Positions 7,401 through 8,849 of a DNA stretch of 64,000 nucleotides are shown here, piece after piece. Position 1 is the stretch's first letter. Every line of letters begins with the position of its first letter. Below the pieces are notes generated by a model. That model searched no databases and had not been told where the DNA came from. It saw only the letters and a list, made by a program, of their open reading frames with translations. The position numbers and the translations under genes were made by a program. Source of the stretch: Longimicrobiales bacterium (GTDB taxonomy: Bacteria > Gemmatimonadota > Gemmatimonadetes > Longimicrobiales > Gaopeijiaceae); NCBI GenBank assembly GCA_965116905.1, contig OZ220732.1, positions 3,520,001 through 3,584,000 on the forward strand, written 5' to 3'.

Positions 7401-8166
7401 TGTGACGCTGGAGGGGGCGCGCGCCGACCTCACCGGCTGGACCGCGACCCGCGCAGGCGCGCGCTGGGCCGAACTCGTGCACGCGTCCGGGACGGGCAGC
7501 GGGACCGTGGGCTGGCAGGGAGATGTGAGCCATCTGCCCGTGGGCGTGTACGTCGACACCGTGTTTGTGGCGGGCGTCTTGGCGGCCGGCAGCCCCGTCG
7601 CTTTTGTGGACACCCTCTCCGTGGAGCCCGCGCTGGCGCTTCCGCCGATTCGGGCCGCAGCCGGCATCGGCGTGGCGGGCCTCGATCTGGCGCCGGGCGA
7701 TTCCCTGCTTCCCGGAATCACCGGATTCGGTGCCGACTCGGCTCAGTGGGTCGCTGAGAGCACGGGTTCCTGGGTGACTCTGACCGGTCAATCCGGGGGC
7801 GCGGCGGATCCGATTGCCTGGAGCCGCTCCGCCGAGTCGCTCGAACCCGGCGTGCATGAGGACACGATCATGGTCCGCGTGGCAGGACGGCCCGAGCTAC
7901 GGGGCATCATCGTGGACCGGTTCGATGTGCTCGAGCCGATTTCCGTGGAAGACGCCGCCCATCACCTGCTCGGCCTGGAGCGCCTCCTTCCGGGGCAGCC
8001 CGGCTTCCTGGACTGGCTGGGCAACCAGGACGGTGTCTTCAACGCCGGGGACGTTCTGAGGTGGCTGGATCACTGCCGGGCGACCGAGAACGGCTCCGGT
8101 TGTCGCCCCGCGACAACACCGGCTGCCCAACCGGCCGAGGAACTCCCCGGGAGACGGCGGCCATGA
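4489..8166 (+). CDS. BNR/Asp-box (VPS10/sortilin- or xyloglucanase-like) beta-propeller protein with BACON-like Ig domains and a C-terminal dockerin-like motif
   Basis: Repeated S/T-x-D-G-G-x-T/S-W Asp-boxes (RTDDAGATW, RSLDGGSSW, RSEDSGRTW and others); C-terminal FLDWLGNQDGVFNAGDVLRW. The true start is uncertain (4489-4840). Confidence 0.8.
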   Translation: MVNAPLRPSRLLAIRRGGRVPHADVHAGGGAGLPNCSLSGPGNRISAATVPVAPVSAMLSMPGMAVSSRARNVDEDGLSSLPFRWVPPTAVSILFASVLVLIPACGPRSVSAQEEEGMRAREGYYALRLYSGGSVNLSAALARARGLRPALPSAPGAASILSPRWRALGPEGTRSHGNRTSARVSSIAIHPTNPNVIYIGAAGGGVWRTDDAGATWRPLTDNECSLSMGSVAIDPVNPDIVYAGTGETPIGYSSYYGCGVLRSLDGGSSWEQLGGDVFVDRRLQGGARIKRVVINPSTAGSASSTVVLAASDYGVFRSEDSGRTWKLVLAHPRPGSGSAVIAMKPGDASVVYAGIPFHGGGIFRSMDGGMSWTDSSPDFAADGVARHTLRQLDLAVVPSAPDVLYASIRIEASPWLVFYRSDDGAETWRYLEAKGLVCRSCGFMALAVHPNDPERVYFGDVYLQLSEDGGRTFRQIDQPGYVDQQHIVFDTLSGPGVVYFANDGGLWRSGDGGMSVTSLSTNLAITQFYPGIALHPSDPGVTLGGTQDQGTQRSSAGTAIWDKVFGGDGGYAAFDAEDPDVWYNEIQWMPGSRASSASGPRRNGVLAASGIDQSEPGLFIPPLVMDPVDSRRLYFGTSRLYRTDDAAGTWTPLFTIPGGQREVTSAIAPSASDPNTVYIAAGTTLLGFKNEWRSLSRGVYVTRDGGETWSDKSAGLPDRRFIGDLAVHPADPDRAYAVVGGFGTGHVFETADGGDTWTDRTGNLPDVPVNAVLHDPADHEAIYVGTDLGVFYSSAGGDVWTLLSTGLPNVPVLELAAQPGTGRLVASTIGRGMFEIPIEVPLVARTRPAAIVDTVYAATDTTLAGTVIAAPFGRLDHAAAWSARASEAPWLTLDDGEGTGRGRFDYRIATGTGLAPGDHRATVTVTVAGADPIEVPVSLRAEYWSRIATDRAGGRTSVPAGHAEPVIDSLNVTLEGARADLTGWTATRAGARWAELVHASGTGSGTVGWQGDVSHLPVGVYVDTVFVAGVLAAGSPVAFVDTLSVEPALALPPIRAAAGIGVAGLDLAPGDSLLPGITGFGADSAQWVAESTGSWVTLTGQSGGAADPIAWSRSAESLEPGVHEDTIMVRVAGRPELRGIIVDRFDVLEPISVEDAAHHLLGLERLLPGQPGFLDWLGNQDGVFNAGDVLRWLDHCRATENGSGCRPATTPAAQPAEELPGRRRP

Positions 8167-8849
8167 AGCGTTACGCGGGGTGGCTGCTCCTGACCGTTTG
8201 CGTGATCGCCATGTCCTACTCGTGCGGCGACGGGGACGCCGCTGTCGTGCCCGAACCCCCCAACAGGGCACCAGCCGCCGCAGGTGCGATTCCTCCGCTG
8301 GAAACCGCCGCCACGGACACGGCGACGGTGGACGTGGCGGGCTACTTCACCGATCCGGATGGCGATGTCCTGACGTATGCGGCATCCAGTTCAGATCGGG
8401 CCGTGGTAACCGCGTCCGTCGCAGCAAGTGTCGTGTCGTTGATCGCGGGAACCGAGAAAGGCGTCGCTACGGTGACGGTCACGGCGCGCGACCCCGGCGG
8501 GCTGACAGCCGCCCAGAGCATCGCGGTCACGGTCGTCGGCAAACCCGGCTTCCTCCAGGTCGTTCTGGACTATCCCGAACCGAATGTCGGGGCCTTGGTG
8601 CTGTTCGTCGAGGGTCCGGCGCTCGACTCCTTGAGGGCCCCACCCCCACTGGAGGCCTACGATGTTGCTTTGCCCAGCGGCGTCGCGGTGTTCGTCGCCG
8701 GGGACATCCCGCAGTCGGGTGCGATCCTGACATTCTGGACCGAAGACTTCACCGAGTCGGACAGCTATGCGGCTTCGGTGACGCAGGGCGTCGGCAGGGA
8801 CTACGATCAGTTGAGCGTCGACGGGGCGGTGGCCCGTGTGGTGCCCTGA
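8163..8849 (+). CDS. Lipoprotein with one Ig/cadherin-like domain and a C-terminal cohesin-like beta domain
   Basis: ATGA overlap with the upstream stop; signal ending MSYSC; NRAP..YFTDPDGDVLTY Ig motif; C-terminal domain homologous to the end of ORF 10615-16212. Confidence 0.75.
   Translation: MKRYAGWLLLTVCVIAMSYSCGDGDAAVVPEPPNRAPAAAGAIPPLETAATDTATVDVAGYFTDPDGDVLTYAASSSDRAVVTASVAASVVSLIAGTEKGVATVTVTARDPGGLTAAQSIAVTVVGKPGFLQVVLDYPEPNVGALVLFVEGPALDSLRAPPPLEAYDVALPSGVAVFVAGDIPQSGAILTFWTEDFTESDSYAASVTQGVGRDYDQLSVDGAVARVVP

Follow-up and report, generated by a model that had tools for sequence, protein, structure and literature searches.

A phylum-wide tag and anchor pair with predicted dockerin and cohesin folds in Gemmatimonadota

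Many exported proteins of Gemmatimonadota, proteases and adhesins among them, carry a C-terminal tag, and a lipoprotein domain that accompanies the tag is encoded next to them or fused to them. Together the two modules form a system that is real, phylum-wide and previously unannotated. Both are new families missed by Pfam and by sequence searches of the PDB. We hold it quite probable that the tag, with its predicted dockerin fold, binds the adjacently encoded lipoprotein, with its predicted cohesin fold, each anchor keeping one exported cargo at an envelope membrane. The more surprising part of the system is a fused precursor with a lipoprotein signal inside it. An earlier note on the window (the whole 64,000-nucleotide stretch of a Longimicrobiales genome that was analysed) had proposed a pair of this kind. 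Its observation is confirmed and its interpretation, binding aside, is largely supported; binding and membrane anchoring themselves are likely.

Two loci and their relatives across the phylum

The window holds two copies of the arrangement (Table 1). The tags are present where the earlier note had placed them, at 7945-8079 on the plus strand and around 11195-11338 on the minus strand, and so is, at both loci, the homologous partner domain of about 100 residues. The partner domains are 35% identical, and a phmmer search of the six-frame ORFs of the whole genome with either one recovers the other (E 9e-8 and 2e-8). The tags are 36% identical; their pairwise phmmer match is weak (E 0.004 and 0.067), and a profile search is strong for all four genome copies (E ≤ 3e-20). 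In all, the genome encodes four tags and as many full partner domains, every pair being adjacent. As had been claimed, the partner is a separate, ATGA-coupled gene at one locus and lies in a single frame with the adhesin-like protein at the other. The further claim that the tag is immediately followed by a lipoprotein signal and the partner holds for the order and is loose for the spacing, since a Big_9 domain (Pfam, residues 34-123 of the separate lipoprotein) lies between cysteine and partner, and 65 residues lie between the last cysteine of the adhesin's tag and that of its lipoprotein signal.

Table 1. Coordinates of the two tag and anchor loci in the window
Feature	Position	Strand	Basis
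Cargo 1: BNR/Sortilin-Vps10 propeller protein, exported, C-terminal tag (start codon uncertain; longest ORF from 4246)	4660..8166	+	ORF, Pfam
Cargo 1, signal-like end	4813-4827	+	sequence
Tag 1: dockerin-like module	7936..8103	+	alignment, predicted model
Tag 1, helix 1	7945-7974	+	
Tag 1, single calcium-type loop	8008-8052	+	
Tag 1, Cys pair	8074-8103	+	
Ribosome-binding motif (GGAG) and, downstream, ATGA stop/start overlap (8163-8166) of cargo 1 and anchor genes	8149..8166	+	
Anchor lipoprotein gene, 228 aa	8163..8849	+	ORF, Pfam, predicted model
Anchor lipoprotein, signal with Cys21	8223-8225	+	
Anchor lipoprotein, Big_9 Ig spacer	8262-8531	+	
Anchor lipoprotein, cohesin-like domain	8538-8846	+	
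Cargo 2: LRR/PKD/cadherin-like/Calx-beta/FN3 adhesin-like protein, 1865 aa; tag, internal lipoprotein signal and anchor in one open frame	10615..16212	-	ORF, Pfam
Cargo 2, end of N-terminal signal	~16009	-	
Tag 2: dockerin-like module (loop 11224-11268, Cys pair 11179-11202)	11179..11346	-	
Cargo 2, linker (weak hydrophobic 11119-11154, then Arg-rich 11041-11106)	11041..11154	-	
Cargo 2, internal hydrophobic stretch with lipoprotein-type Cys at its end	10981..11028	-	
Cargo 2, cohesin-like anchor domain	10618..10929	-	

The features of these loci recur elsewhere. An overlap of -4 joins 60 of 68 split or standalone anchors to the gene before them, and 117 of 120 standalone anchors have a cysteine at position 10-45, in keeping with a Sec/SPII lipoprotein signal (basic n-region, hydrophobic stretch, small residue and then Cys). 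The residue at -2 to this cysteine is often aromatic (W or Y, e.g. window 8217-8225 and 10981-10989), so that standard lipobox patterns would miss the lipoprotein signals of this lineage. This stretch of DNA was found in a sponge metagenome run. The only RNA run covers genes and intergenic DNA alike at flat depth, as contigs, and is thus uninformative on transcription.

The surroundings of the two loci offer some further observations. Between them, at 9073-10344, lie a frameshifted fragment of a lipoprotein gene (Ig-like start, +) and a truncated IS110-like transposase (-), both labelled by eye. Also encoded in the window are several large lipoproteins, each with a signal at the N-terminus and an Ig-like start, at 614-4495 (+; Big_2, LRR, PPC and M66-like peptidase domains), 29079-33155 (-), 34459-38196 (-), 42655-44442 (+) and 45812-47644 (+). 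These are directly lipid-anchored, lack the tag in a profile search and provide a natural contrast to the tagged cargo. The region 16374-23782, with a PD-(D/E)XK-like gene, a LuxR-type regulator, a MobC-like ORF and IS fragments (again by eye), has the look of a mobile island. A little upstream of the window an anchor-domain remnant (E 5e-5; G000:C1:3516166-3516471, -) sits beside conjugation-like genes recognised by eye, which suggests decay or mobility of the cassette.

Among 24 genomes of the same genus, 18 have both modules and six have neither, with copy numbers (1-8) that mostly match. In 301 Gemmatimonadota genomes both modules occur in 132, neither in 146, the anchor only in two and the tag only in 21 (anchor in 134, tag in 153); this tally takes in two unpublished genomes with both modules (G094 and G213), without which 130 of 299 have both, it used an anchor profile narrower than the tag profile and, the genomes being kin, its counts are not independent trials. 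A broader anchor profile finds a match in 13 of the 21 tag-only genomes (E ≤ 0.05). In three of the other eight, the ORF that directly follows the tag is lipoprotein-like and gives a weak match, scored against only a few ORFs; this leaves five sampled genomes with a tag for which no anchor turned up. The modules are also neighbours. A tag lies on the same strand at most 1.2 kb upstream of 39 of 45 distant anchors, taken from 40 loci picked for spread and long contigs plus four weak loci of an order-level search. The other six have no tag just upstream, and at the six examined loci of this kind the same strand carries a tag-bearing gene further on, at most 10 kb downstream. Counted from the tag, 51 of 55 at near loci are paired with an anchor, one locus being counted twice because of overlap. 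The co-occurrence and adjacency across genomes that the earlier note had named as a check are thus found. In one distant genus (L250-L255), genes for tagged proteins of 750-2000 residues are preceded, at a distance of up to 10 kb, by a second anchor, which sits right behind an outer-membrane-receptor-like gene; in L250 a PEP-CTERM-like protein lies between.

All matches whose source gives a taxon come from Gemmatimonadota or "bacterium HR33", and the named relatives of the anchor lipoprotein belong to Longimicrobiales and Candidatus Palauibacter (Gemmatimonadota). Five genomes from outside the phylum (three Vicinamibacterales, one Spirochaetia, one unclassified) have neither module, a sample too small to set the range. 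The anchor profile gathers 1,195 clusters at 50% identity.

The diversity of passengers that the earlier note had proposed for the pair is upheld across the phylum. The 37 distant tagged proteins comprise 29 M6 metalloproteases, two BNR propellers, one subtilase, two NHL/SGL propellers, two Ig-only proteins and one unassigned. Calx-beta domains characterise 20 of 25 fused cargoes, three are FN3-rich and two have no match, with GH16 in two of the 25. The near split cargoes that were scanned are BNR propellers in six cases out of six. These counts indicate that the tag and anchor pair was kept while the cargo was swapped. Tandem arrays of two to four fused adhesins at L081, L085 and L088 combine near-identical tag-linker-anchor tails with cargoes that differ, which suggests recent duplication and a reshuffling of cargo.

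Predicted folds of tag and anchor

The fold guesses of the earlier note were borne out by blind structure searches of predicted models with two programs, Foldseek and VIA. The anchor domain (103 residues, eight strands) was modelled from an 88-row alignment with a pLDDT of 96.8. Against 48,161 chains, VIA places cohesins at ranks 1-15 (Z 8.9, rmsd 2.4, 95 residues aligned), the first chain of another kind having a Z of 6.5. In Foldseek the first two ranks are the cohesins 2xdh and 2vo8 (probability 1.0, TM 0.68/0.59, E ≥ 0.018). The ESM Atlas gives a cohesin-bearing cluster for the anchor at 0.81, a lead only. Cohesins have nine strands and about 140 residues, and their Pfam profile has a length of 139 against the 103 of the anchor. 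In type I cohesin chains the VIA alignments start only at residue 14-29, from which the anchor appears to be without the first strand. None of 50 anchor members matches the cohesin family PF00963, nor does a scan of the genome give any match, and a PDB sequence search with the anchor found none. Being one strand short, the anchor is a cohesin variant and not a member of that family.

The tag (about 55 residues) is predicted to form three helices (pLDDT 85.9, also from 88 rows). VIA ranks dockerins at 1-11 (Z 5.1, rmsd 2.8, 52 aligned; first non-dockerin at Z 2.6) and Foldseek has them at ranks 1, 2 and 4-6 with E of 4-6, both the Z and the E lying in a range where the tool warns of a common helical arrangement. 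Taken alone the tag score is modest, and the weight of the assignment comes from the paired result, two separate blind searches reaching both halves of one known pair. The likeness to a dockerin-type calcium loop, also put forward in the earlier note, stands in part. The consensus of the dockerin loop is D-x-[DN]-x-[DN]-G-x-x-[DN]-x-x-D, which no tag among 88 contains. A variant in which the first Asp stands two positions nearer the N-terminus than in the canonical loop, D-x-x-G-N-x-[DN]-G-x-x-[DN]-x-G-D, is found in 76 of the 88. The alignment shows this single Asp/Asn loop before helix 3. None of 53 tag members matches the Pfam dockerin family PF00404 at E ≤ 1, a genome scan with that profile does not match the tags, and a PDB sequence search with the tag gave no match. 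With one calcium-type loop and not two, the tag is a dockerin variant, not a member of PF00404.

Over 205 pairs (about 83 effective), covariation between columns of tag and anchor did not exceed that of shuffled pairings, with a best z of 4.83 and values of 3.5-5.0 for the shuffles. The correlation of tag and anchor distances, at 0.86, is explained by shared ancestry and was not counted as support.

Fused genes with a putative internal lipoprotein signal

The 150 best representatives of the anchor profile include 115 in which the anchor lies beyond residue 250. In 114 of these long matches a tag lies upstream, with a linker and a Cys-ended hydrophobic stretch between the modules, of the form W-[SGA]-C in 101. 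The 113 linkers that were scored have a median of 11 Arg/Lys and one Asp/Glu. PEP-CTERM and GlyGly-CTERM sorting signals combine a signature motif, a full transmembrane helix and a basic C-terminal tail, and go with a cognate sortase; the linkers show a weak hydrophobic stretch (at least 1.2 in 73 of 113, below 0.8 in 30 of 113) and a basic run. By a simple heuristic an N-terminal signal is present in 20 of 26 complete fused ORFs, against 5 of 123 control windows. The earlier note had drawn on a pattern of fusion and fission in support of physical interaction: fused and split forms do both exist, and the fusion is not the ordinary one of two domains. With a lipoprotein signal kept between the modules, the mature products of a fused gene are probably still two chains. 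An assembly error was considered as the cause of the fusion and rejected, since contigs from two public runs (one of which may be the source sample) span the junction in cargo 2 with no difference or gap, and 114 fused proteins were found.

In a quick, midpoint-rooted tree, from which four other fused BNR proteins were absent, a branch with an SH-aLRT of 98 sets the 27 fused rows apart. In the sampled set this is consistent with the fused copies being one clade, derived by one fusion from a split ancestor. Some fused BNR proteins (L256-L259; P0114, P0125) have two Ig domains before the anchor in the internal lipoprotein, and some of the linkers contain short tandem peptide repeats and lack the first hydrophobic stretch.

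Granted that the pair binds, we lean towards seeing the fused genes as self-anchoring polyproteins. One long precursor would be made, with the Arg-rich stretch kept in the cytoplasm and the internal signal lipidated and cut by Lgt and LspA. Some protease would free the cargo from the linker remnant, and tag and anchor would rejoin non-covalently. The simplest topology would be a membrane hairpin made of a weak first helix, a cytoplasmic basic loop and the lipoprotein signal. The weak first stretch is missing in 30 of 113 linkers, which counts against such a simple hairpin.

Mechanism, related systems and significance

For the pair in general, the starting point is a cargo with an N-terminal export signal and a terminal tag, and an anchor with a Cys-ended signal of lipoprotein type, in a genome that has Lgt and LspA. 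The tag is predicted to fold into three helices with one calcium-type loop and the anchor into an eight-stranded cohesin sandwich. After Sec export the tag would dock on the anchor, and in a single orientation, for it has only one loop-helix unit. Coupled translation would set cargo and anchor at roughly 1:1 amounts. Searches of the genome, which is 97% complete, gave neither an exosortase nor PorV and thus no candidate route to the outer surface; the two rhomboids encoded there are not typed as rhombosortase.

Other explanations have to be weighed against docking and self-anchoring. Fused genes could be nested genes: the pair would bind as proposed, translation of the anchor would begin at an in-frame start of its own, and the protein made by read-through would be a side product. 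This would avoid the topology problem where the first hydrophobic stretch is missing, and an in-frame ATG, GTG or TTG does occur 12-45 codons before the cysteine in 17 of 39 fused linkers, and anywhere in the linker in 28 of 39. The copy in the window has two such starts (GTG/ATG, 56 and 50 codons before the cysteine), neither with a ribosome-binding motif. Yet 11 of the 39 linkers have no such codon, the candidate positions are not conserved, and a start with a ribosome-binding motif is the rule for separate anchors (56 of 69) and the exception in fused linkers (5 of 39). We thus consider nested genes unlikely.

It is quite unlikely, in our judgement, that the anchor serves mainly as a chaperone for export or folding, or as a periplasmic inhibitor or retention factor, instead of a display anchor. 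Lipoproteins next to proteases are often inhibitors, most distant cargoes are M6 metalloproteases (29/37), and the searches for PorV and exosortase found no surface-translocation machinery. However, the same anchor follows a non-catalytic, adhesin-like cargo, it tracks the tag and not the catalytic domain, and both predicted folds match a known docking pair. This last point also bears on whether tag and partner might merely be a co-inherited cassette with no mutual binding, whose fold matches reflect common helical and sandwich arrangements. Lack of sequence similarity to the dockerin and cohesin families, the modest Z of the tag and the covariation without signal would all agree with it. But the top structural rows are all cohesins for the anchor and all dockerins for the tag, and the linkage outlasts cargo swaps, reversal of order and a separation of 10 kb, which makes a mere cassette very improbable. 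Docking of the tag on its lipoprotein is thus the reading that we retain.

Among the closest known models is the type I cohesin-dockerin pair of cellulosomes (PDB 2ccl, 1ohz, 4fl4, 6kgc), which has the same folds as those predicted for both modules. As in those pairs, the dockerin-like tag stands at the C-terminus of exported cargo and has its Asp/Asn loop before the last helix. Type I dockerins have a duplicated F-hand with two calcium loops, according to the accessible text of PMC4728124, whereas the tag has one loop, no Ser-Thr/Lys-Arg pattern and, in many cases, an added Cys pair. A cellulosome is defined, in the accessible part of PMC13487519, by a scaffold with at least two cohesins together with a dockerin-fused glycoside hydrolase. 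In contrast, the anchor of about 103 residues is a single cohesin on a lipoprotein, with no multi-cohesin scaffold: there is one anchor domain per protein in all 114 matches listed. The cargo is not cellulase but mostly proteases and adhesins, GH16 occurring in the two fused cargoes mentioned above. The best structural matches of the anchor (Z 8.8-8.9) are non-cellulosomal cohesins, from Archaeoglobus fulgidus (2xdh) and from glycoside hydrolases of Clostridium perfringens (2vo8, 2w1n, 2jh2, 2o4e). Docking is non-cellulosomal for them as it would be for the anchor, but these cohesins are 8-12% identical to the anchor, are recognisable family members and come from other phyla; the descriptions of them that were accessible do not present them as a lipoprotein coupled gene-to-gene with its cargo.

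Adjacent genes for one cohesin and one dockerin have been reported, as far as the accessible texts go, in Cellulosilyticum lentocellum, where a 1:1 complex of ClcC and ClcD was shown (PMC13487519), and in Chlorobium chlorochromatii, where one of Cag_2037 and Cag_2038 was modelled (bioRxiv 10.64898/2026.03.19.712371). From the same texts these are canonical modules, detectable by annotation, in single lineages, whereas the Gemmatimonadota pair is cryptic, phylum-wide, probably lipid-anchored and found also as a fused precursor. Putative dockerin-like and cohesin-like modules are mentioned for Saccharophagus in the accessible part of PMC2386152. In the literature searched on Gemmatimonad dockerins, non-cellulosomal cohesins and internal-signal lipoproteins, from which most subscription papers fell outside, the pair is not described.

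The cytochrome b-c1 precursor FbcH of Bradyrhizobium presumably has a second, internal export signal. Dual Sec-Tat proteins likewise carry a second export signal inside one gene product (PMC5449189, as far as its accessible text goes). Unlike in these, the internal signal of the fused precursor ends in a lipoprotein-type Cys and comes after an exported cargo of 0.5-5 thousand residues. Nor does it show twin-arginine enrichment: the motif precedes the hydrophobic stretch in 15 of 113 linkers, against 18 expected from shuffles, and a Tat route was rejected.

In its widest form, to which we give an even chance, the phylum has its own cryptic cohesin-dockerin display, developed in sponge-associated Longimicrobiales into self-anchoring polyproteins encoded by one gene of up to 5,000 codons. 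A giant adhesin would there be recaptured by a lipid anchor from the same gene, by means of a lipoprotein signal buried near the C-terminus. If true, diderms would have a new way of making lipoproteins and of anchoring proteins in the envelope, and the fused form allows a direct test of whether Lgt and LspA process a lipoprotein signal located far within a chain that is already exported. The system would extend cohesin-dockerin chemistry to a reduced, one-loop form missed by annotation, and its small binding pairs may be orthogonal to those of designer cellulosomes. It would also assign a function to about 1,200 clusters of "hypothetical" proteins and explain how proteases and adhesins are kept at the envelope in a phylum that is large and for the most part uncultured.
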